Shown here: piece after piece, positions 2,172 through 30,905 of the stretch
Numbering within the stretch: the first letter of the stretch is position 1
Layout of the letters: every line of letters starts with the position of its first letter
Source of the DNA: an uncultured Sulfurospirillum sp.
GTDB taxonomy: Bacteria > Campylobacterota > Campylobacteria > Campylobacterales > QNZT01
DNA length: 30,965 bases
Direction of reading: 5' to 3'
Assembly (NCBI GenBank): GCA_964501795.1
Contig: CAZCUH010000003.1
Coordinates: forward strand, 1 to 30,965
Notes under the pieces: model-generated
Databases searched by the model: none
Seen by the model: the letters and a program-made list of their open reading frames with translations, nothing else
Told to the model about the DNA's origin: nothing
Made by a program: the position numbers and the translations under genes

Positions 2172-2730
2172 GGGGGTAGATACTTCAGGGAAAAGTACAC
2201 AGGTGGATTTGCTGCATGCCTGTTTCCCTAATGCCATCAAGACCAAAGAACCAGGGGGAACCGCTTTGGGTATGACCTTGCGTGAGCTGATACTGCATCA
2301 AGGGGTACACAACCATAAAACAGAACTGTTTCTTTTTTTAGCAGATCGCGCTGAACACTATCATGATATCATCAAGCCAGCCCTTGATAAGATGATACTC
2401 TCAGATCGTGGGCTCATCTCTGGTATCGCGTATGCCTTGGCAAATCATGAGAGCTATGAGATGGATTTTCTGCTCACACTGAATCGTTTTGCACTCGATG
2501 ATACCCTGCCAGACAAAGTCATCTTGCTCCTGACCAATGAAGCACTCATCAAGGAGAGACTAGGAGAAAAAAATGCCGATTTTATCGAGCAGAGAGGTAT
2601 GGCTTATCTGCTCAAGATACAAGCTATCATGATAGAGGTCATCGAAGCACTAGGTGTGGATGCTATCATGATAGATGCCAACAAAAGTAAAGAAGAAATA
2701 CACCAAGAGATAAAGGATTTTATAGCATGA
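2155..2730 (+). CDS. tmk: Thymidylate kinase
   Basis: FEGVDTSGKSTQ P-loop, KEPGGT, LFLADRAEH, SDR. Start at ATG 2155 after AAGGA (2145-2149). Confidence 0.96.
   Translation: MYVLFEGVDTSGKSTQVDLLHACFPNAIKTKEPGGTALGMTLRELILHQGVHNHKTELFLFLADRAEHYHDIIKPALDKMILSDRGLISGIAYALANHESYEMDFLLTLNRFALDDTLPDKVILLLTNEALIKERLGEKNADFIEQRGMAYLLKIQAIMIEVIEALGVDAIMIDANKSKEEIHQEIKDFIA
2624..2635. repeat. Iterated palindrome CTATCATGATAG, exact copy inside tmk
   Basis: Read directly. Confidence 0.95.
2663..2674. repeat. Iterated palindrome CTATCATGATAG, exact copy inside tmk
   Basis: Read directly. Confidence 0.95.
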
Positions 2731-3929
2731 TACGCGCCTTAAAAGGGATGAAAGACACCCTCGCCCCACAAAACAAAAAATTTGAATATTTTATCGAAAA
2801 CACAACAAAAATTGTCAAAAAATATGGCTATGAATTTATCGAAAGTCCTATATTGGAAGAGACTACTCTGTTTAAAAGAAGTGTAGGAGAAAGTAGCGAT
2901 ATCGTGGGTAAAGAGATGTACCAATTTACGGATAAAGGGGGCAATGATGTCTGCCTACGACCAGAAGGTACTGCGGGTATCGTACGCGCTTTTGTAGAGG
3001 CAAAGATGGATCGTATTGGTGGGATAAATCGTTTTTTCTATTATGGTCCGATGTTTCGCTATGAGCGACCACAGAAAGGAAGGCTAAGACAATTTCACCA
3101 ATTTGGATGTGAGAGCTTCGGGGAATCAAACCCCCTAGAAGATGCCAATATCATTATCATGATACAAGAAATCTTAGACTTCTTTGGAGTCAACTATACC
3201 ATCGAATTAAATTCACTAGGCTGCCCTAGCTGTCTGCCACCATTTCGCCAAAAGCTAGTCGCATTTCTCGATGAAACAGAAGGCTTTTGTGAAGATTGCC
3301 TCAGACGCAAAGAGACCAATCCTATCCGTGTCTTTGACTGCAAAAATCCACATTGCCAAACCCTACTTACCACTGCACCAAGATTGAACAAAGCCTTATG
3401 TCAAGTGTGTCAAAATGATTTTAAGGTCGTAACCAAAACATTGGATAAAGCAAACATCAGCTATACGCTCAATCCAAATCTCGTACGGGGACTTGACTAC
3501 TACTCCAAAACAGCTTTTGAATTTGTAAGCACAGACTTAGGCGCACAAAATGCCGTCGCAGGTGGTGGACGCTATGATAAACTTGTGGAATATCTTGATG
3601 GTCGTCCTACGCCTGCTATTGGGTTTGCCATAGGCATTGAACGGCTATTGGATATGATAGACATCAAAGCCTCAGCAAGAGAGGGGTACTATTTTGGAGC
3701 CCTCACGCAGGAAGCACAAGAAGCCGTTTTTTTACAAGCACACAAACAACGAAAAAAAGGCAAGGTCATCCATAATTATGATGTCAAAAGCCTCAAAGCG
3801 CACCTCAAAGGTGCGGACAAAGCCAATGCAAGATATTGTGCCGTTATAGGTGAAGATGAGTTGAAAAATGCAACGCTTTGGGTCAAAGATTTGCAAGAGA
3901 AAAACGAAGAGATGAGACCTTTAGACTAA
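2727..3929 (+). CDS. hisS: Histidine--tRNA ligase
   Basis: LRPEGTA, FRYERPQKGRLRQFHQ, LVRGLDYY, GGGRYD, GFAIGIERL. Confidence 0.98.
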   Translation: MIRALKGMKDTLAPQNKKFEYFIENTTKIVKKYGYEFIESPILEETTLFKRSVGESSDIVGKEMYQFTDKGGNDVCLRPEGTAGIVRAFVEAKMDRIGGINRFFYYGPMFRYERPQKGRLRQFHQFGCESFGESNPLEDANIIIMIQEILDFFGVNYTIELNSLGCPSCLPPFRQKLVAFLDETEGFCEDCLRRKETNPIRVFDCKNPHCQTLLTTAPRLNKALCQVCQNDFKVVTKTLDKANISYTLNPNLVRGLDYYSKTAFEFVSTDLGAQNAVAGGGRYDKLVEYLDGRPTPAIGFAIGIERLLDMIDIKASAREGYYFGALTQEAQEAVFLQAHKQRKKGKVIHNYDVKSLKAHLKGADKANARYCAVIGEDELKNATLWVKDLQEKNEEMRPLD

Positions 3930-3931
3930 AA

Positions 3932-5761
3932 ATGCAAAATTATGGTATGCAACTTTGGGCTGATGATAACTATAGCATCAGCCAAGATACATTAAGAGTC
4001 AACTTTGCATCCAAGCCTTCACTCTTAGAAATCGTTACTAAAATTCGTCAACAAGGACTGAGAGGTCCTCTACTACTGCGTTTTCCACACCTGATAGAGA
4101 AGCAAATTGATGCACTTTATCAACATTTTAGACGCGTTTTTCAAGAGTTAGATTATCATGGACATTTCCAAGCTGTTTTTCCACTCAAAGTCAATCAATA
4201 TCCAAACTTTGTCAAGCCACTTCTTGAAATTGGCGAAAAATATCACTATGGCTTAGAAGCAGGAAGTAAAGCAGAACTACTCATCGCCATGACTTATACC
4301 AATGAAAATGCCCCTATTCTAGTCAATGGATTTAAAGACAAAGAACTCATCGAGATGGCCTTTTTATCAGCCAAAATGCAACAAGATATCACGCTAACCA
4401 TCGAAGGTATCAACGAGTTAAAAAGTATTATCGCCGTAGCCAAGGAGAAAGGCTCTCCACTACCAAAGATAGGATTAAGAGTTAAGCTCCATAGTGCAGG
4501 TATTGGATTATGGGCAAAGAGTGGTGGTATGAATTCCAAGTTTGGACTCACTTCTACCGAACTCATTGAAGCGATGCAGTTGATGAAAGAGCATGGCTTA
4601 CTTTCGCAATTTACGATGATTCACTTTCATATTGGCTCACAGATGACCAGTATCGCTCCACTCAAAAAAGCCCTGAAAGAGGCAGGAAACATCTATACAG
4701 ATTTAATCAATCTAGGAGCAGATAATTTACATACCATCAACCTAGGTGGTGGCTTGGCAATAGAGTATTCTCAAAATGATGCTTCTCCGCATATTCACTA
4801 CTCCCTTGAAGAGTATGCCAATGATGTCGTCTTTATGCTTCAGAGCATTGCACAAGCAAAAGGGGTCACAGAACCCAATATTACTATCGAATCAGGAAGA
4901 TTTGTCGCTGCACCTCATGCTGTACTCATTGCCCCTGTCTTTGAACTCTTCTCCACAGAATACTCACCACAGGCGCTAAAACTCAAAACAGTCAATCCCC
5001 CTTTGATTGATGAATTAAATGCGCTCTATCATGATATCAATCAAAACAACGCTAGAGAGTTTTTGCATGATAGTTTTGATCATCTTCACTCGCTTTTTAC
5101 ACTCTTTGATCTTGGATATATTGATTTAATTGATCGATCTAATGCAGAGATTTTAGTACATCTTATCATGAAAAAATCTATCTTACTTTTAAAAGATCAG
5201 CATTTAGAGGAACTGTTAAAAATGCAAGAGCATATCCAAGAAAAGTATCTTCTCAACTTTTCCCTCTTTCAAAGTATGTCAGATTTTTGGGGTCTTAAAC
5301 AGCACTTTCCTATCATGCCACTCTCCAAGCTAGATGAGAAAGCAACCCACACTGCCAATCTCTGGGATATCACCTGTGATAGCGATGGAGAGATACCTTT
5401 TGATGAACAAGAACCACTTTATTTACATAGTGTCAATCTTGAAGAAGAAGATTATTTTTTAGCATTTTTTCTCACAGGTGCCTATCAAGAGGTCTTAGGT
5501 ATGCAGCATAATCTCTTTACCCACCCTACTGAAGCGACTATCATGATAGATAGTGATGGTTATAAGATAGAAAATATAAAAGAATCTTCTTCAATAATTA
5601 ACATTTTAGACGATTTAGATTATGATGTGCATGAAATTAAAAAACATTTGCATATGCATATAAATCAAAGTCATTTTATCAAACAAGATGAAAAAGAGAA
5701 TATTTTAACTATTTTAGAATCTTTACTTTCTGAGAATGGCTATTTAAAAACTACAAACTAG
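3932..5761 (+). CDS. speA: Biosynthetic arginine decarboxylase
   Basis: VFPLKVNQ (PLP lysine), GLEAGSKAEL, HFHIGSQ, ESGRFV, DITCDSDG, GAYQEVLG. The start at 3932 (MQNYG) fits homologues better than the ORF-track start at 3878. Confidence 0.96.
   Translation: MQNYGMQLWADDNYSISQDTLRVNFASKPSLLEIVTKIRQQGLRGPLLLRFPHLIEKQIDALYQHFRRVFQELDYHGHFQAVFPLKVNQYPNFVKPLLEIGEKYHYGLEAGSKAELLIAMTYTNENAPILVNGFKDKELIEMAFLSAKMQQDITLTIEGINELKSIIAVAKEKGSPLPKIGLRVKLHSAGIGLWAKSGGMNSKFGLTSTELIEAMQLMKEHGLLSQFTMIHFHIGSQMTSIAPLKKALKEAGNIYTDLINLGADNLHTINLGGGLAIEYSQNDASPHIHYSLEEYANDVVFMLQSIAQAKGVTEPNITIESGRFVAAPHAVLIAPVFELFSTEYSPQALKLKTVNPPLIDELNALYHDINQNNAREFLHDSFDHLHSLFTLFDLGYIDLIDRSNAEILVHLIMKKSILLLKDQHLEELLKMQEHIQEKYLLNFSLFQSMSDFWGLKQHFPIMPLSKLDEKATHTANLWDITCDSDGEIPFDEQEPLYLHSVNLEEEDYFLAFFLTGAYQEVLGMQHNLFTHPTEATIMIDSDGYKIENIKESSSIINILDDLDYDVHEIKKHLHMHINQSHFIKQDEKENILTILESLLSENGYLKTTN
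5538..5549. repeat. Iterated palindrome CTATCATGATAG, exact copy inside speA
   Basis: Read directly. Confidence 0.95.
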
Positions 5762-7565: not shown

Positions 7566-9383
7566 TTAATAGATATAAAACTTTTTCATAAAGTTCTCAT
7601 CAACATCGAGTAAACCCCTCTCTTGTAGGCTTTTGAGAACATTTTGATCACAGTCTGTATCCTCTGGCCATCTACGAGAAAAGCCATCAATTTCCCCTTT
7701 ATTCGTTGCATCGATACAGATAAATTCCTTTTCTAGCACGACATCACGCGTTGCATCTATGTTATTGACGATACGCCAAAGCAACATATAGGGATTGTCC
7801 AAACTATTTTTATGGCTATCTACAACGATTACTAGCTTTGTATGAGGCTTGATTGCCTTTAATTTTTCAAAACTATCTTTTACTGGCGCTTTTTTATCAA
7901 TTGCGAGGATGACAATAGGTGTTTTTGTATAAGTTTTATACTGTTTGAGTTCACGCACATTAGGCTCCAACGCCTGTACTATATCAAGCAAGGCTTCATC
8001 ACTCACAATCTCTTTCGCTGGAAAGTTGACATTATCACGCGTACAGTCAATACCCAATTTTCCACCATATGCAAAATCATCAGAGGAGTGATCTAGCGCA
8101 TCGCAGACCCCCTCGCTTATCATGATATTCTCTATCTTGACACGATCGAGTATATAATCACTCAAAGCATCATAATCTTCCAAAGAAGGTGCATCTTCAT
8201 TGACAAATATCGCATGCTTGACAAAACTCATCTGTCCAACACCCCAAAATACATGCATAAATTGTTTGGCATGTCCAGGGTATTGGGTCTTCATCTTGGC
8301 AATGATAAGATTATGAAAGACACCATTTTCTGGCATCACATAATCAATCAAGTCAGGTGCCGTCGTACGAAGCAGTGGCAAAAATATCCGCTCCGTCGCC
8401 CAGCCCATATACTTATCTTCCAACGGTGGCTTACCAACCACAGTCGCCAAATAGACAGGATCCTTTTTATGACTGATACAAGTAACATCCATCACAGGAT
8501 ACTCTTCTTCAAGTGTATAGTACCCCGTATGATCACCAAAAGGCCCTTCAATCTCCATCTTAGAAGGATCTACCACACCTTCGATCACAAAATCAGCATC
8601 CTCAGGAATAAACAAATCATTTGTCAATGATTTTACAAGTCGTGCACTCTCACCCTTGATAAAACCATACATCAGTAATTCAAAAACGCCATGTGGTAAA
8701 GGCGCAGTAGCAGCCCAAGTATAGAGTGGATCTCCACCAATGGCAATAGAGACAGGCATCTTTTTACCCGCTTTTTTATATTCATTAAAAAAATTGGCTG
8801 AGTCTTTATGAATCTGCCAATGCATCCCTAAGCGTTTCTCACCATACACTTGCAGACGATACATTCCGAGATTTTTTCGTTCTCCATCTAAAGACTCTGT
8901 ATAGACTTGTCCCATCGTGATAAAAGGTCCACCATCTTGACTCCAAGTCGTTAGTATAGGCATATCATAGAGACTTAGCCTATCATCATGATAGACCACT
9001 TCCTGACAGGCACCTTTAGATTTTAAGCGTTTTGGAAAGACATTTTTAAGTGAAAAAAGCTGTGAGAGCATCCCAAACTTTTCACCCAAAGAGCTAGGTG
9101 GTTTGAGATGTAAAAGTTTTTCGATTTCATCCGCCACATCATCGGCCTTTTTACCAATAAAAAGCTCTGTCGCCTTATGCGAGCCAAAAGCATTCATCAA
9201 GACTGGTGTCGTGAATTTTTTACCCAATCTTTTCGAGACAGGATGTGTAAATAAAAGTGCTTTGGAATCTTGTTTTTTGACTTCAATATAAGCGATGTGG
9301 GGAATTTCTAAATCTATATCCACCTCTGCATCTATCTCTCGCAGAAGATTGTGTTCTTTGAGTAGGGCTATGGCATTTTTCAT
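7566..9383 (-). CDS. ubiD: UbiD-family decarboxylase (menaquinone biosynthesis type in Campylobacterota)
   Basis: DGGPFIT, NLGMYRLQ, MHWQIHKD, EGPFGDHTGYY, GKPPLED. Start 9383 chosen by SD spacing (9386 is possible). Confidence 0.95.
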   Translation of the reverse strand: MKNAIALLKEHNLLREIDAEVDIDLEIPHIAYIEVKKQDSKALLFTHPVSKRLGKKFTTPVLMNAFGSHKATELFIGKKADDVADEIEKLLHLKPPSSLGEKFGMLSQLFSLKNVFPKRLKSKGACQEVVYHDDRLSLYDMPILTTWSQDGGPFITMGQVYTESLDGERKNLGMYRLQVYGEKRLGMHWQIHKDSANFFNEYKKAGKKMPVSIAIGGDPLYTWAATAPLPHGVFELLMYGFIKGESARLVKSLTNDLFIPEDADFVIEGVVDPSKMEIEGPFGDHTGYYTLEEEYPVMDVTCISHKKDPVYLATVVGKPPLEDKYMGWATERIFLPLLRTTAPDLIDYVMPENGVFHNLIIAKMKTQYPGHAKQFMHVFWGVGQMSFVKHAIFVNEDAPSLEDYDALSDYILDRVKIENIMISEGVCDALDHSSDDFAYGGKLGIDCTRDNVNFPAKEIVSDEALLDIVQALEPNVRELKQYKTYTKTPIVILAIDKKAPVKDSFEKLKAIKPHTKLVIVVDSHKNSLDNPYMLLWRIVNNIDATRDVVLEKEFICIDATNKGEIDGFSRRWPEDTDCDQNVLKSLQERGLLDVDENFMKKFYIY

Positions 9384-9461: not shown

Positions 9462-10406
9462 CTAAAATATCTCATTGAGTGCTATTTCTTCTGCCCGTTT
9501 GAGCAGTTTGATAGCACCATTTTCTATCATGATATCTGCAAGTTCTTTGCCCATCTGTTTGTAGGCACTCTTATCACAGAATTTTTTCTCTTTGATGATT
9601 TCATTGCCATCAGGTAAACCCACACAGCATCGAGCAACAATACTCTCACCATCATACTTCGCATTGACACCTATAGGAACTTGACAGCCTCCTTGCAAGA
9701 CCGTCACAAAGTCTCTCTCTACGGTAGTCTCAATCAAGGCATTTTCATCATTGAGTACAGCAATAATCTCTAAAATTTTAGGATCATCAATCGCTTCAAT
9801 ACCAAGAGCTGCCTGTCCCATCGCAGGAATCATCTCTTGCACTTCTATAGGAGTGGCATACCGCACCTCAGCTTGCAATCCCAATCTATTCAACCCAGCA
9901 GTTGCCAAAATGATAGCATCATATTCACCATCTTTAAGTTTTCTGATTCTTGTATTGACATTACCTCGAAGATTTTTAATCTTCAAATCAGGACGCAATG
10001 CCAGTATCTGCATACGCCTTCTCAAACTTGTAGTCCCAACAACAGCACCCTGAGGCAGTGCATCGATATTCTCATATTTTTCACTCAAAAGACAATCACG
10101 CACATCCTCTCGTGCTGTGATAGCACCCAACACAAGCCCCTCAGGAAATTCCATCGGTACATCTTTAAGACTATGCACCGCGATATGTGCACGCCCCTCA
10201 AGCATCGCATCTTCAAGCTCTTTGGTAAATAGCCCTTTACCACCAATCTTTGCCAAAGGAGTATCCAAAATCTTATCCCCTTTTGTTGACATCTCACTAA
10301 GTACAACTTCCATATCAGGAAAGGCTTTCTCAAGTTTGGCTTTGATGTGTTCAGATTGCCATAAGGCTAATTTACTTTTTCTCGTCGCTATGATAAGTTT
10401 TTTCAC
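9462..10406 (-). CDS. hemC: Hydroxymethylbilane synthase (porphobilinogen deaminase)
   Basis: IATRKSKLALWQ, GGKGLFTKELE, HSLKDVP, GTTSLRR, LRGNVNTR, GGCQVPIG. Confidence 0.98.
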   Translation of the reverse strand: MKKLIIATRKSKLALWQSEHIKAKLEKAFPDMEVVLSEMSTKGDKILDTPLAKIGGKGLFTKELEDAMLEGRAHIAVHSLKDVPMEFPEGLVLGAITAREDVRDCLLSEKYENIDALPQGAVVGTTSLRRRMQILALRPDLKIKNLRGNVNTRIRKLKDGEYDAIILATAGLNRLGLQAEVRYATPIEVQEMIPAMGQAALGIEAIDDPKILEIIAVLNDENALIETTVERDFVTVLQGGCQVPIGVNAKYDGESIVARCCVGLPDGNEIIKEKKFCDKSAYKQMGKELADIMIENGAIKLLKRAEEIALNEIF

Positions 10407-11633: not shown

Positions 11634-13325
11634 CTAGAGTCCTTTAATTTTCTCAAATATTGCATCTTTGGAGATACTCTCTTTCTCTAAAGTAGCACGA
11701 TTTACAAGTTGTACTTCTCCCTCTTTAAGACCTTTTCCTATGATGATAGCATAAGGAAATCCAAGTAGTTCAAAATCACCCATTTTAAAGCCAAAACGCT
11801 CATGACGATCATCTAGTAAAACAGAAATCCCAGCATCTCTCATCTGCGTATAAAGTGCTGTTGCAAAGGCAAGTTGTGCTTCATCTTTCATATTTGAAAT
11901 CACGATATCAAATTTAAAGGGAGCTGTTGCCTCTGTCCATAAACAACCTTTTTCATCATGGTGTTGCTCTATCATGACAGCCACCAAACGACTCACTCCT
12001 ATGCCATAAGTACCCATGACAAATGGTTTACTTTTACCATCTCGATCTAAAAATGTTGCACCCAATGCTTCACAATAGCCTGTTCCTAGTTGAAATATAT
12101 GCCCTACTTCTATCCCCTTGGTCATTTCAAGCTTGCTACTACAAGCAACACAAACATCTCCAGCATGCACAGCGGCTATATCATGATAGGAAAACGGCTG
12201 ATTCTCAAAGCTCACACCGATATCATGATAATCTTTTTTATTGGCACCACAAATCAGTGAGTTTGCATCTTTTAAGCTCTCATCAACATAACAATCCACG
12301 CTTTGGTCAAAAGGTCCTATAAAACCTACCACAATACCTGCAGCTTCCAATTCCTCACAACTTACATCTTCAAGTTCTAAGGCTCCACAGGCATTTTGTG
12401 CCTTGACTTCTTGGAGTTCATCGCTACCTCGCAAAAAGAAAAGTACAATTTTCTCAGATGCTTCATAGATTGCTTTTTTCGCAACTGCTTTGACAAAGTA
12501 ATATGGTTCTACTTTGAAAAAGTCACTCAACGCTTCTATGCTCGTAATATCTGGTGTATGAAAAGCACCACCTTGCATCTCTACTTCACCTTCTGGCGCC
12601 GTTGGTACTTGTCGTTTTGCTGCTTCTATATTGGCAGCATAGTCACACTGTGAACAGATGATGATGTCATCTTCACCATTTTCTGCCAAGACCATCAATT
12701 CTCTCGAACCGCTTCCACCTATGGCACCACTATCAGCTTCTACGACACGAAAATCAAGTCCAAGTCGCTGTAATATTTGACTATAAGTCTGCTCCATCAA
12801 GGCATATTCTCGTTTTAAATCTTCAACATTTTCATGGAAACTATACCCATCTTTCATCAAAAATTCACGCCCTCGAAGTAGTCCATATCGTGGTCTCGCT
12901 TCGTCACGAAATTTTGTATTGATTTGATAGAGATTAAGGGGGAGTTGTTTATAGCTTTTGATACGATTTCGTACCAAATCCACCATCGCCTCTTCATGGG
13001 TTGGTCCTAAGACAAATTCATTGTTTTTTCTATCTTTAAAACGCAATAACTCTTTACCAAACTTTGCATATCGCCCGCTCTCTTTCCAAAGCTCCGAGGG
13101 AGTCACAAATCCTAATTGTACCTCTTGACACCCTGCATGTTCTAACTCCTCTTTGACAATCGCTCTTATCTTATCTAAAACAATTTTTCCTAGTGGTAAA
13201 AAGTTATATATCCCTGCGCCTATCTGTGATACAAAGCCACCTCTGACGAGATAAATATGGCTAGGAAGTATGGCATCTTTTGGTGCATCTTTTGTTGTCG
13301 GTGCAAACAGGTTTGTAAATCTCAC
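11634..13325 (-). CDS. proS: Proline--tRNA ligase with editing insertion domain
   Basis: [56 protein letters not shown]. Confidence 0.98.
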
Positions 13326-14650: not shown

Positions 14651-15543
14651 TAAAATTCTCTTTCAATCATATTTTTTATCACAGACTCTAAAGCCTCATT
14701 TTTCTCTTCTTTTATCGCATCTAGTGCTTCAAGCCCAAGTTTTTGTGCCAATTGTATAGACTTCTCTATAGCACCACTCTCTATCATGATAGACTTTATC
14801 CAGGCTGCATCTTCACTGCTTAATTGCTTTTTATAGAGTCCTTCTAGCCTCTTTTTCTGCTCCTCATCTATACGATCAAAGAGATAGATATACGGTAAGG
14901 TCGTTTTTCCCTCTTCATAGTCATGTAAAGCGGGTTTGCCCAAGGTATCAGCATCCATCGTGATATCTAAGACATCATCTATGATTTGAAAAGCAAGTCC
15001 AAGATTTTTCCCATAAAGCCCAAAAGCTTCTGCATCCTTATGCGCCAATAAAGCAGCAGATTTTGCCGCAGCTTCTATCAATACCGCCGTTTTTTTATAT
15101 ATCATATCAAAATAGCGCGCTTCATCTAAATTGAGTGATTTTGATAATTCAACATCCATCAATTCCCCAACAGAGAGCATCGTTACCGCATCTGCAACTG
15201 TCTTGGATATCTCTTGTGAAAAAGCCGTAAGAAGAGAAAAGCCCTCTGAATATAAAATATCCCCTAACATGATAGCTGTTTTATTACCAAATTGGGCATT
15301 GATTGAAGCAATGCCCCGTCTTGTATCAGCATCATCGATCACATCATCATGCAGTAAACTTGCAGCATGAATCAGCTCTACAATAGCTGCCAACGAAACA
15401 CTCTCTTCGCTTTCACCTGCTATCTTTAAGATAAGCTTTGCTCTTAAACGCTTTCCAAAAGGAAGCTTTTCATACAATGAAAGTGCATGCGCATCTAACC
15501 CTGCCACGCTCTCATGCATCAGTGTTTCAACTTCTTCTAGCAT
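14650..15543 (-). CDS. ispB: Polyprenyl (octaprenyl-type) diphosphate synthase
   Basis: GKRLR, ELIHAASLLHDDVID, RRG, AFQIIDDVLD, GKP..D..EGK.TLP. Chain length cannot be determined from sequence. Confidence 0.9.
   Translation of the reverse strand: MLEEVETLMHESVAGLDAHALSLYEKLPFGKRLRAKLILKIAGESEESVSLAAIVELIHAASLLHDDVIDDADTRRGIASINAQFGNKTAIMLGDILYSEGFSLLTAFSQEISKTVADAVTMLSVGELMDVELSKSLNLDEARYFDMIYKKTAVLIEAAAKSAALLAHKDAEAFGLYGKNLGLAFQIIDDVLDITMDADTLGKPALHDYEEGKTTLPYIYLFDRIDEEQKKRLEGLYKKQLSSEDAAWIKSIMIESGAIEKSIQLAQKLGLEALDAIKEEKNEALESVIKNMIEREF
14781..14792. repeat. Iterated palindrome CTATCATGATAG, exact copy inside ispB (extends to 14-bp TCTATCATGATAGA)
   Basis: Read directly. Confidence 0.95.
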
Positions 15544-16292: not shown

Positions 16293-17228
16293 TTATGAGA
16301 AAAAATGGCTAATGAGCTCTCGTAAATGGTTATAATCATCTATTCTATTAATTTTATCGCGAAACTCCGAAGCAGCAGGGAAACCTTTTGAATAAGTGTG
16401 CAAATGTTTTCTAAATATTGAAACACCCTTGTCACCATAAAACTCATACATCAAGTCATAGTGTCGTAAAACAATCTCTTTGATCTTCTCTTTTTCTACA
16501 CTTTTTAAACTATTTTTTAATTGGTAAAATATCCATGGATTGCCCACTGCACCACGCCCTATCATGATACCATCACAATTGGTATATTCTCTCACATGCT
16601 GCGCTATCTCCAAGGAAGTGATATCTCCATTGGCAATGACAGGAATATTGACTGCCTCTTTTGCCTCTTTGATAGGCGTATAGTCAATGGGAGCCTTATA
16701 TTTACCAGCTCTAGTTCGTCCATGAAAAGTGATAAAATCAGCACCTGCATTTTCAACTGATTTTGCAATATCTGCTGCAATTTTTTCATTAAATCCCAAA
16801 CGAGACTTTACTGAGGTGTACTCTTTATTGGAATATTTTTTAATGGTTTCAATCACACGAGACATTTGTGGTAAATCCGTTAGTAAAGATGAACCAGAAT
16901 TTTGAGAGACGATTTTGGGAACAGGACATCCACAGTTTAGATCGATCCCATCAATCCCATCAAAATCATTTAAGATAAGCACTGCCTCTTTAATGACATC
17001 AACATCACTACCTGCAATTTGTACGATATAGGGAGACTCACTTGGAGACTTTTCAACCATCTTAAATGTTCGTGAAGAGTGGTATTTTAGTGCATTGGCA
17101 CTTATCATTTCAGATATCGTGACATCTGCACCAAATTCTTTAGCAACAGAGCGGAAAGGAAGATCTGTATAGCCCGCCAAAGGGGCTAACATCACAATAT
17201 CCTTTTTAGAAAAATCTATTGTAGCCAC
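16293..17228 (-). CDS. dusB: tRNA-dihydrouridine synthase (DusB-like)
   Basis: LAPLAGYTDLPFR, SEMIS, DLNCGCPVPKI, HGRTR, NGDI, MIGRGAVGNPWIF. Confidence 0.92.
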   Translation of the reverse strand: MATIDFSKKDIVMLAPLAGYTDLPFRSVAKEFGADVTISEMISANALKYHSSRTFKMVEKSPSESPYIVQIAGSDVDVIKEAVLILNDFDGIDGIDLNCGCPVPKIVSQNSGSSLLTDLPQMSRVIETIKKYSNKEYTSVKSRLGFNEKIAADIAKSVENAGADFITFHGRTRAGKYKAPIDYTPIKEAKEAVNIPVIANGDITSLEIAQHVREYTNCDGIMIGRGAVGNPWIFYQLKNSLKSVEKEKIKEIVLRHYDLMYEFYGDKGVSIFRKHLHTYSKGFPAASEFRDKINRIDDYNHLRELISHFFS

Positions 17229-17234
17229 AGAGAC

Positions 17235-18239
17235 CTATACAAAAAGCTCTGTATCAAAGTTACGACCTTGATCTTTCAAAAAGAGGATATATCTAAATTT
17301 TTGATACTCATCTTCGGAGGCATTTGCCAAAAATTCTCTTGCATCATCTATCATCTGAAGTTCAAATAAGACATAAAGATATGCCTCTCCAGCGGTATTT
17401 GGAAATTCATGCGCAAGCTTTCCTGCGAGGTTCAAGAGTCTATCAGGCACAAGCTTTGCTCTTAATTTTTTCATAAGAGCAATAAAATCTTCACTTGTAT
17501 AATCCAAATGCTTTATATAGGCGATGATTTCATCATCACCCAATTCTAAAGCATCTTCTTTGGCATTCATGCGATTTATCATGATATCAAAAACTTCTCT
17601 TGATGGTTCGACTTCATACTTGACAAGTTCTGACATCGGTGCATAAGTAGCAAAGGTCAAAAACGCTTTTTTACAAGTCGCTTTATCATCACATCTTTTT
17701 AAAATAGTGCTTGCATAAGTCTTGTCTTGTGCCATTTGATTTAAAGCATTTTGTAACATATATGGGTTACTTGGCTTTAAGTCATACTTTGTCAAGTCCA
17801 CGACTTCACCATTTTCTAAACGCTCTTTTGCCTCTAAGATATCTTGCACATCGTCATTGTAGATACGATATTTTTTTGCTTTATAGGGATCAGAATTTAA
17901 AAGAGGCAAAATCGCACCAGGCAACTTAAAAAAATCACTTTTATAATCTGCTTTTATCTCTTTACCCAAAAGTGCTTCTTTCGCCGCTTGTGTAAATTTC
18001 TCTCCATCTTTTTTTACACGCCTAAATCGTATCGTATTGGTAGTGCCGTAAAATATAAGGTGCGCGATAGTGGCTAAGAAAAGTAAAATAACTGGTAAAA
18101 TAACCCATATAGCTACAGGTAGTGTAATAGGTACATCAACGATATTTAAAGTATATTTTCCACCTTCAAAACTATAAACATACACACCCAAAAGGATGAT
18201 AAAAAATAGCCCAAAACCAATATACTTTTTTAATCCCAT
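17235..18239 (-). CDS. Conserved membrane protein: two N-terminal TM segments plus a soluble helical region
   Basis: Two hydrophobic stretches at the N-terminus; lies between dksA and dus, the arrangement I recall from C. jejuni. Confidence 0.75.
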   Translation of the reverse strand: MGLKKYIGFGLFFIILLGVYVYSFEGGKYTLNIVDVPITLPVAIWVILPVILLFLATIAHLIFYGTTNTIRFRRVKKDGEKFTQAAKEALLGKEIKADYKSDFFKLPGAILPLLNSDPYKAKKYRIYNDDVQDILEAKERLENGEVVDLTKYDLKPSNPYMLQNALNQMAQDKTYASTILKRCDDKATCKKAFLTFATYAPMSELVKYEVEPSREVFDIMINRMNAKEDALELGDDEIIAYIKHLDYTSEDFIALMKKLRAKLVPDRLLNLAGKLAHEFPNTAGEAYLYVLFELQMIDDAREFLANASEDEYQKFRYILFLKDQGRNFDTELFV

Positions 18240-26690: not shown

Positions 26691-26714
26691 CTATCATGAT
26701 AGCTATCATGATAA
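26691..26714. repeat. Tandem copies CTATCATGATAG-CTATCATGATAA in the gltB/recO divergent intergenic region
   Basis: Read directly; 26692-26713 is a perfect 22-bp palindrome. Confidence 0.95.
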
Positions 26715-26763: not shown

Positions 26764-27381
26764 ATGCAAGGTTATATCCTCAATATCAATAAAGTCAAAG
26801 ACGAAGACCTCATCGTCACTATCCTAACGGAGAATAGACTCAAGACCCTCTACCGTTTTTATGGAGCTCGCCATGCCAATATCAATCTAGGCTACAAGAT
26901 AGATTTTGAAGCTGTATCTTCCGCAAAATCTACCATTTCAATGCTGCGTGAAGTCCTACCACTTTCTGCAAAATGGATGCTTCAAAGCAATCGATTTTTT
27001 ATCTGGCAACAATTCATCAAACTGATGTTTAAACATCTTAAAGATGTCACTGACTTAGACCCCTTCTATTTTACGCTCCTCGAAGAGAGTGCTATCATGA
27101 TAGCCAAACAAAACCCCAAGCGTGTCATGATAGAGTCTTATCTACAACTTTTAGAGTATGAAGGACGACTTCATGACGATTTTCAATGTTTTATCTGTGA
27201 TGAGATGATAGAGTCTCACCTCGTGCTAGCTAGAAGTTTTCTGCCCGCACATCAAGCTTGTGTCTATGGAAGTGTGCTTGAGAAGCAAAAGATTACACAG
27301 CTCTTTTCTAGTAAATCTACCCTCTATCTTGAAGATGCTGAGGTTGAACATCTATGGCAACTGCTCCTAGAAGGCTTTTAA
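26764..27381 (+). CDS. recO: Campylobacterota-type DNA repair protein RecO
   Basis: MQGYIL...VKDEDLIVTILT...LYRFYGARHA.INLGYKIDFE N-terminus; YLQLLEYEGRLH; CFIC...HQAC zinc site. Confidence 0.9.
   Translation: MQGYILNINKVKDEDLIVTILTENRLKTLYRFYGARHANINLGYKIDFEAVSSAKSTISMLREVLPLSAKWMLQSNRFFIWQQFIKLMFKHLKDVTDLDPFYFTLLEESAIMIAKQNPKRVMIESYLQLLEYEGRLHDDFQCFICDEMIESHLVLARSFLPAHQACVYGSVLEKQKITQLFSSKSTLYLEDAEVEHLWQLLLEGF
27092..27103. repeat. Iterated palindrome CTATCATGATAG, exact copy inside recO (extends to 14-bp GCTATCATGATAGC)
   Basis: Read directly. Confidence 0.95.
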
Positions 27382-30893: not shown

Positions 30894-30905
30894 CTATCAT
30901 GATAG
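30894..30905. repeat. Iterated palindrome CTATCATGATAG, exact copy just upstream of dnaE
   Basis: Read directly. Confidence 0.95.

Follow-up and report, generated by a model that had tools for sequence, protein, structure and literature searches.

The window analysed here, a stretch of 30,965 nucleotides, is contig 3 of a MAG in the Campylobacterales (1.61 Mb, 39% GC, 210 contigs, 82.5% complete), for which the closest named record is a 'Sulfurospirillum sp.' MAG. The genus is known from MAGs, and no cultured member was found. Exact copies of a palindromic 10-mer, TATCATGATA, are distributed over the genes and spacers of the window; the information profile of the copies gives YTATCATGATAR as the fuller form. 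There are 17 exact copies, against 0.11 expected from dinucleotide shuffles, and the 8-mer form is present 21 times (1.66 expected). The copies are listed below with the peptide encoded and the state of the orthologous site in the two other species of the genus, where G000 is the window species and G002 its sister species.

2140-2730: tmk (dTMP kinase by NCBIfam)
2359-2368: copy in tmk, Y-H-D frame (HYHDI), extending to an 11/12 copy at 2358-2369; window species only (G002 YKD, G001 YKQ)
2625-2634: copy in tmk, I-M-I frame (AIMIE), within an exact 12-mer CTATCATGATAG at 2624-2635; exact in all three species of the genus, with NMI, NME or LMI in outgroups
2664-2673: copy in tmk, I-M-I frame (AIMID), within an exact 12-mer CTATCATGATAG at 2663-2674; window species only (G002 YITID, G001 YICID)
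3155-3164: copy in hisS (IIMIQ); common to the genus, with LML, MMV, LLA or LMI in outgroups
5027-5036: copy in speA (LYHDI); window species only (G002 YLD, G001 FLD)
5539-5548: copy in speA (TIMID); also IMI in G002 but through ATT, one synonymous mismatch; IEI in G001
8118-8127: copy in the UbiD-family (menaquinone) decarboxylase gene (NIMIS); exact in G002, absent from G001
8984-8993: 9/10 variant CATCATGATA in the UbiD-family gene (VVYHDD); the orthologous G002 site is exact
9525-9534: copy in hemC (DIMIE); exact in all three species
12179-12188: copy in proS at residue 380 (SYHDI); conserved Y/F-x-D base, with H confined to G000, G002 and G003
12221-12230: copy in proS at residue 366 (DYHDI); conserved D-Y-H base, with D as third residue in G000 and G002 only
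14782-14791: copy in the polyprenyl diphosphate synthase gene (SIMIE); exact in G001, TGTCATGATA in G002
16560-16569: copy in dusB (GIMIG); exact in all three species
17577-17586: copy in a 334-aa ORF (DIMIN); exact in all three species
19159, 23632 and 24169: other 9/10 variants
26692-26713: two abutting copies (26692 and 26704) in the divergent spacer between a 1479-aa ORF and recO; in G002 the second is exact and the first has one base deleted
27093-27102: copy in recO (AIMIA); window species only, TATTATGATA in G002
30895-30904: intergenic copy, 11 nt upstream of the start of a 1168-aa ORF on the minus strand

According to the original prediction, the palindrome is written into proteins in two frames, three times in tmk alone. 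The three tmk sites were confirmed at their coordinates, with the two exact 12-mers 39 nt apart in addition to the 11/12 copy, and all of the peptides named for tmk, hisS, speA, ubiD, hemC, proS, ispB, dus, a membrane protein and recO were reproduced, the gene names being checked by NCBIfam. A separate feature of the window is a spacer stretch of about 100 nt before the first operon (328-431). It has counterparts on two additional contigs of G001, at 87-88%, and on another contig of G002, at 84%, which makes it a multi-copy conserved element; neither Rfam nor a tRNA scan of the window, this stretch included, returned a match.

Form, abundance and distribution of the palindrome

In the host genome, TATCATGATA is the commonest 10-mer and occurs 1236 times, or once per 1.3 kb, against a zero-order expectation of 4.4; the maximum-order Markov expectation is uninformative, its sub-words consisting of the motif itself. 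The reversed control word occurs just 2 times. One-base variants are rare, with 138 and 124 occurrences for changes at positions 1 and 10, 56 and 58 at positions 2 and 9, and no more than 28 at each inner position. In the genome-wide profile of the copies, the flanks contain no information beyond +/-2, which indicates a short word and not a longer element. A REP- or MITE-type element was rejected, as only 10-12 nt are informative and two thirds of the copies are intragenic. TACATGTA is a related CATG-centred word.

The spacing of the copies is near-Poisson over all contigs (variance/mean 1.17). No motif-free islands are found in the whole MAG, the longest gaps matching an exponential distribution, and the contigs, at no more than 30 kb, are too short for a long-range periodicity of the type reported for the palindrome HIP1. 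With ORFs called by a crude longest-ORF rule (1461 ORFs, 84% coding), under which gene-boundary counts are approximate, 824 copies fall in coding DNA (0.61/kb) and 319 outside it (1.24/kb). The non-coding copies are thus twice as dense, prefer the same outer base (C at 0.63-0.64 in coding and non-coding copies alike) and are also conserved, as described below, which indicates that the force acts on DNA. The density is 2.0/kb in convergent and 2.0/kb in divergent spacers, which argues that single copies have no terminator preference.

A comparison with related genomes reveals that the abundance of the word is confined to the genus. The 10-mer counts in the three species of the genus are 1236, 1028 and 1549, whereas 38 other members of the family and order have 0-93. 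The corresponding 12-mer counts are 453, 262 and 583, and none of 398 further genomes of the order (96 genera, 26 families) has more than 16. Hyper-abundance was therefore found in 3 of the 401 sampled genomes of the order, all of one genus. The hisS-region loci of 46 other Campylobacterales contain no copy. When 18 other genomes of the family were surveyed for k-mers in samples of 2-60 kb, no further hyper-abundant palindrome emerged, and another word, TTACATGTAA, is unused in the family, with at most 6 copies in each of 41 relatives and 1 in the host genome. In the literature searched, the word is not described as a bacterial repeat and no iterated palindrome is linked to the Campylobacterota. 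Genome G013, which has the highest count of TATCATGATA outside the genus (93) and an intact ICEA-plus-methylase pair, contains a non-palindromic word, AAAAATATGATA, approximately 14-18 times in 60 kb (contig 48, 1-60000).

Imprint on proteins and maintenance of the copies

The extracted ORF sequences contain 800 copies of the word, of which 509 are read as I-M-I and 291 as Y-H-D. As the third frame contains TGA, two frames alone are available; the third had been predicted to be barred from coding sequences, and it accounts for 0 of the 800 copies, yet it is used at gene ends, where it supplies TGA stops. IMI and YHD are the two most over-represented tripeptides of the proteome, at 552 against 71.8 expected from amino-acid frequencies (7.7x) and 361 against 21.8 (16.6x), respectively, and the near-variant tripeptides HHD (4.8x) and IMM (3.1x) are also raised. 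The codon choice is almost uniform: ATC-ATG-ATA encodes 541 of the 552 IMI tripeptides, where codon usage predicts 11.8%, and TAT-CAT-GAT encodes 358 of the 361 YHD tripeptides, where it predicts 45%. The use of ATC-ATG-ATA noted at first for all the listed IMI copies is nearly exclusive in the whole genome. IMI encoded by other codons is depleted (11 compared with approximately 63 expected), as if older IMI tripeptides had been recoded.

The number of copies in coding sequences was compared with two randomizations, a synonymous-codon shuffle (137 +/- 9 copies) and a codon-order shuffle (6.8 +/- 2.5). The observed 800 copies exceed both, the latter by 118x, which indicates that amino-acid sequence and codon choice have both been bent. 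At least one copy is present in 524 of the 1461 ORFs (about a third, or 36%), and the motif contains approximately 5% of the ATG codons of genes and the same share of their CAT codons. The density of the motif falls with gene conservation (Spearman -0.31, p = 4e-6): when the genes are divided into thirds by conservation, the lowest third has 0.97/kb and the highest 0.19/kb.

To compare the sites with orthologues outside the genus, tmk, hisS, speA and proS were aligned with 24-46 out-of-genus sequences, which covers eight sites of the window (three in tmk, one in hisS, two in speA and two in proS). IMI or YHD does not extend across the outgroups at any of these sites, with the single exception of G003 at proS 380; the G003 genome holds 18 copies of the word, yet has YHD at this position. 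Eleven of the 24 motif-coded residues match the outgroup consensus and serve as anchors, such as Met at tmk 164 and hisS 145 and Tyr-His at proS 366-367, and the other 13 are novel. The columns of the novel residues have an entropy of 1.4-2.8 bits, compared with protein means of 1.0-1.5. Three of the eight sites are confined to the window species, three are shared with G002 only (one as ATT-coded IMI) and two are genus-wide. Conservation of IMI or YHD in motif-free orthologues, together with ordinary codon choice, was looked for and not observed, and the original prediction of lineage-specific substitutions at variable sites agrees with the 13 novel residues and the high entropy of their columns.

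The maintenance of the word was examined in 228 kb aligned between G000 and G002, at a nucleotide identity of 79.4%. Of the motif sites, 108 are shared, 49 are found in G000 only and 33 in G002 only, so that 69-77% are exact in the other genome, compared with 14.4% of all 10-mers. The per-base identity is 0.92 within the word, compared with 0.73 over 28 nt of flank to each side, and flanking 10-mers are intact in 4-12% of cases. Non-coding sites behave alike, with 13 of 22 exact and an identity of 0.86 against 0.70 in the flanks. The word is thus an island of constancy amid surroundings that are conserved below average. Gains and losses of the motif are evident in each lineage. The non-shared sites differ by 1 to at least 7 bases, with an excess of single steps: the one-mismatch state is found at 22 of the 49 G000-only sites, approximately 2.7x the binomial expectation. 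At lineage-specific coding sites, the tripeptide itself differs between G000 and G002 in 38 of 47 cases.

These comparisons show that copies arise by point changes wherever the protein tolerates them, usually on one or two existing residues (Met, Tyr-His, Ile or Asp), that the variable neighbours of these anchors are recoded and that the resulting copies subsequently change far less than the sequence around them. The copies are shown to be densest where constraint is least, in spacers and then in weakly conserved genes. There is hardly any doubt that a DNA-level force creates and keeps the genus-specific palindrome YTATCATGATAR, and we regard IMI and YHD as its passive imprint, with near certainty as to the DNA-level part. 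The view originally taken, that unrelated proteins are reshaped by such a force, is supported by the codon and orthologue tests and by the non-coding copies.

Paired copies, gene boundaries and a candidate methylase

Because the word is self-complementary, two copies on the same strand can base-pair. Copies are spaced at 18-24 nt approximately five times too often, yet only about 5% of all spacings are below 25 nt. Thirty-four close pairs in non-coding or gene-edge positions, with copies 15-27 nt apart, can form stems of 11-15 bp with loops of 4-8 nt, at a mean folding energy of -16.8 kcal/mol compared with -3.7 for shuffled sequences; examples are found in G000 on contig 4 at 25153 and on contig 18 at 14356. 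Among the 24 hairpins whose context is known, approximately 20 begin no more than 20 nt behind a stop codon. At the 3' end, 31 genes have at least two copies within 60 nt, compared with 3 genes at the 5' end. No T-run follows the hairpins in the pairs examined. In the orthologous pairs of G002, the stems are kept and the loops have diverged. The sole pair of the window (26692-26713) is an exception, being located in a divergent promoter spacer. Near position 10895 of contig 15, G000 has a pair, and in G002 a single copy caps a longer, perfect inverted repeat formed by the flanks, which is a different route to a hairpin at the same spot.

The word also contributes to the ends of genes. It supplies 56 of 359 TGA stops (16%), approximately 90 called start codons (about 5-6%) and 26 ATGA overlaps, and an SD-like sequence lies upstream of 46% of the motif-borne called starts. 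In the window, the ATGA overlap of tmk and hisS (2727-2730) is formed by a near-motif, TAGCATGATA.

The DNA methylases of G000 comprise one D12-class m6A enzyme and three C5 enzymes. The D12 methylase has 347 aa and is encoded on contig 64 at 3279-4319 (L086:1363-2406, minus strand). In the genus its gene sits between selO and xth, with no endonuclease gene nearby, and in G000 only an MntA-type toxin-antitoxin module is inserted beside it. The homologues in G013 and G028 are 61% identical and lie directly behind a gene for an ICEA (NlaIII-type) endonuclease; no ICEA gene was found in G000, G001 or G002. In H. pylori, iceA1 is a homologue of NlaIII and the adjoining hpyIM is a CATG methylase (PMC2749054). 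Judged by this family relationship, the central CATG of every copy is probably m6A-methylated by the solitary M.HpyI/NlaIII-family enzyme. Such a solitary enzyme is present in all three genomes of the genus and additionally in at least 10 of 22 genomes of the family that lack the word, which indicates that the methylase family cannot be a sufficient cause. The enzymes of the genus have a handful of private substitutions at otherwise invariant positions. One motif copy, read as AYHD, lies in a variable part of the methylase gene. Searching the PDB with the D12 methylase gave no match.

The C5 methylases were rejected as partners of the word: they belong to ordinary R-M pairs (EcoRII-C, NgoFVII-like, HNH ORFs), with the word at normal density. 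In the genome, which is 82.5% complete, no N6_N4 methylase, no Vsr-type endonuclease and no VirB4-type T4SS were found, and among the methylases, Vsr and VirB4 no genus-exclusive gene that tracks the word was identified. ComEC and DprA are present.

Comparison with known systems and competing explanations

HIP1 (GCGATCGC) and the alternate HIPs of cyanobacteria are short exact palindromes, over-represented 15-300x in genes and spacers, with sites that are conserved between genomes and an inner sub-word that is recognised by solitary methylases (PMC5861425, PMC4390886, PMC13756078). Methylated HIP1 raises transformation in a cyanobacterium (bioRxiv 10.1101/2024.09.10.611283). The present word resembles HIP1 in being an exact palindrome that is found in genes and spacers alike amid unrelated flanks, at an excess of at least one to two orders of magnitude, with sites conserved between genomes and one-base variants biased to the first and last positions. 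However, it is AT-rich and 10-12 nt long (HIP1 has 8), belongs to another phylum and is neither GCGATCGC nor a GC-rich alternate. It is centred on CATG with a probable m6A, whereas HIP1 has CGATCG with m5C plus GATC. It is restricted to one genus, whereas HIP1 extends through a phylum, and its methylase family is also found in word-free relatives. Additionally, its paired copies form 3' hairpins, unlike those of HIP1.

Pairs of DUS or USS form stem-loops behind genes. The present word shares with the USS of Pasteurellaceae and the DUS of Neisseriaceae the length of the word (9-12 nt), a density of approximately 1 per kb, the restriction to one lineage, a frame-specific imprint in weakly conserved genes and residues, and stem-loops of inverted pairs at 3' ends. 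It differs in being a palindrome, and the uptake bias through which USS and DUS are known to act is putative here. USS and DUS occupy particular frames in weakly conserved genes and residues and approximately double the frequency of the tripeptides concerned (Findlay and Redfield, PMC2817400), whereas the tripeptides are raised 7.7x and 16.6x here. The likeness to uptake sequences and HIP1 drawn in the original prediction is judged to be apt.

Restriction sites are normally avoided, not enriched. The methylase of the genus is of the same family as that of the iceA1-hpyIM/NlaIII system, and the homologues of two relatives stand behind an ICEA-family gene, but here the methylase stands alone, with no endonuclease gene found (PMC2749054). 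Within the phylum, a further likeness is offered by C. jejuni, in which a solitary m6A methylase, CtsM, acts on the palindromic motif RAATTY; unlike the present word, RAATTY is a 6-mer that is frequent by composition. To our knowledge, neither hyper-abundance nor an imprint on proteins has been reported for RAATTY. C. jejuni takes up only DNA that is RAATTY-methylated by CtsM and in this way tells self from non-self DNA (PMC10046745).

We rank first, as a serious but tentative reading that falls a little short of probable, the natural-transformation pathway as the agent of this force, with the word as a tag of self-DNA that would probably be read as m6A on the central CATG. This ranking is based on the lineage restriction, the density, the pattern of the imprint, the 3' pairs, the precedent of C. 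jejuni and the transformation data for HIP1. The presence of ComEC and DprA, the ICEA-linked homologues of the methylase and the HIP1-like bias of one-base variants to the outermost positions also speak for it. The solitary M.HpyI/NlaIII-family methylase would lay m6A on the central CATG of the word, the methylated word would favour the uptake and/or recombination of DNA of the same genus, and word-bearing alleles would spread by biased transfer, as proposed for USS and DUS and now for HIP1. More specifically, and more doubtfully, the word may be a palindromic uptake or recombination signal, read in its methylated form, of a free-living genus of the Campylobacterales. Against a transformation tag, the conservation of sites is equally expected under any other selected role at the DNA level, no VirB4-type T4SS was found, the known uptake sequences are not palindromes, the solitary methylase family extends to word-free relatives, no genus-exclusive gene was identified, and single copies are equally dense in convergent and divergent spacers.

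A methylation-dependent repair bias of the HIP type, in which mismatches near a methylated CATG would be corrected to the word with no role in uptake (Elhai's model of HIP1, PMC4390886), appears unlikely. The palindrome and its probable solitary CATG methylase are in accordance with it, as are the one-base deviations at the outer positions, which are also seen in HIP1 (PMC4390886), the depletion of non-motif IMI codons, as if these had been converted, and the excess of the one-mismatch state among the sites that G002 lacks. However, many lineage-specific sites are 3-7 bases away from the sister state, which is unlike the action of short-patch correction alone, the genome lacks a detectable Vsr-type endonuclease at its 82.5% completeness, the solitary methylase family is shared with word-free relatives, and Xu et al. 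take the conservation of sites as selection and not as replenishment (PMC5861425). The same authors read HIP1 as a binding site (PMC5861425), and the present word could likewise be bound by an abundant dimeric protein of the nucleoid, of replication or of segregation and be kept by ordinary selection. An exact palindrome suits a homodimer, and the conservation in coding and non-coding DNA and the near-Poisson, even spacing on all contigs are in agreement with this role, which we nevertheless consider distinctly improbable: a candidate protein did not emerge, this role would not predict the hairpin pairs at 3' ends, and more than 1200 sites at equal density per contig, with no positional pattern, are unlike known architectural sites. 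Such sites (parS, matS, SlmA and Noc) are few.

The word might instead be a building block of hairpins, in 3'-end stem-loops and in gene-boundary cassettes that provide ATG, TGA and TAG, with the coding copies as spill-over. The stability of the 34 close pairs, mostly just after stops, and the 56 TGA stops, approximately 90 starts and 26 ATGA overlaps in copies speak for such a use, but two thirds of the copies are single and deep in genes without a partner, 800 intragenic copies are left unexplained, few spacings are below 25 nt, the hairpins lack a T-run, and starts are not favoured, since the word has a similar share of starts and of internal ATG codons (approximately 5%). Such an origin is therefore very improbable. 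Selection for IMI and YHD as peptides, or a mere bias of composition or codon usage, retains practically no likelihood and is refuted by the codon and orthologue tests: both tripeptides are chemically unremarkable and easily tolerated, but two unrelated peptides correspond to one DNA word on both strands, a single codon combination is used in 98-99% of cases, the non-coding copies are denser, and relatives lack these peptides at the same sites, while the shuffles yield 6.8-137 copies against 800 and the reversed word occurs only twice. A miniature mobile element, or an artefact of assembly or sequencing, would account for the high copy number, but its likelihood is negligible; it is refuted by the absence of flank information beyond +/-2 and by the conservation at orthologous positions, with copies in-frame in housekeeping genes of three independently assembled genomes.

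These results indicate that a DNA process has forced two tripeptides into approximately 36% of the predicted proteins of the organism, with an imprint several times stronger than the roughly 2-fold effect documented for uptake sequences, and the word thus offers a clean natural measure of how far proteins are bent by a constraint that is not their own. Annotators of these genomes should not take IMI and YHD as functional motifs. As the word is sharply defined, limited to one genus and still turning over, and is accompanied by a candidate methylase and by 3' pairs, the purpose of highly iterated palindromes becomes testable in a second phylum. If the word is indeed a palindromic uptake or recombination signal that is read in its methylated form, it would represent the first system of the uptake-signal type in the Campylobacterota and a mechanistic bridge between HIP1 and USS/DUS, with the strongest imprint of any such signal on a proteome (tripeptides raised 8-17x).
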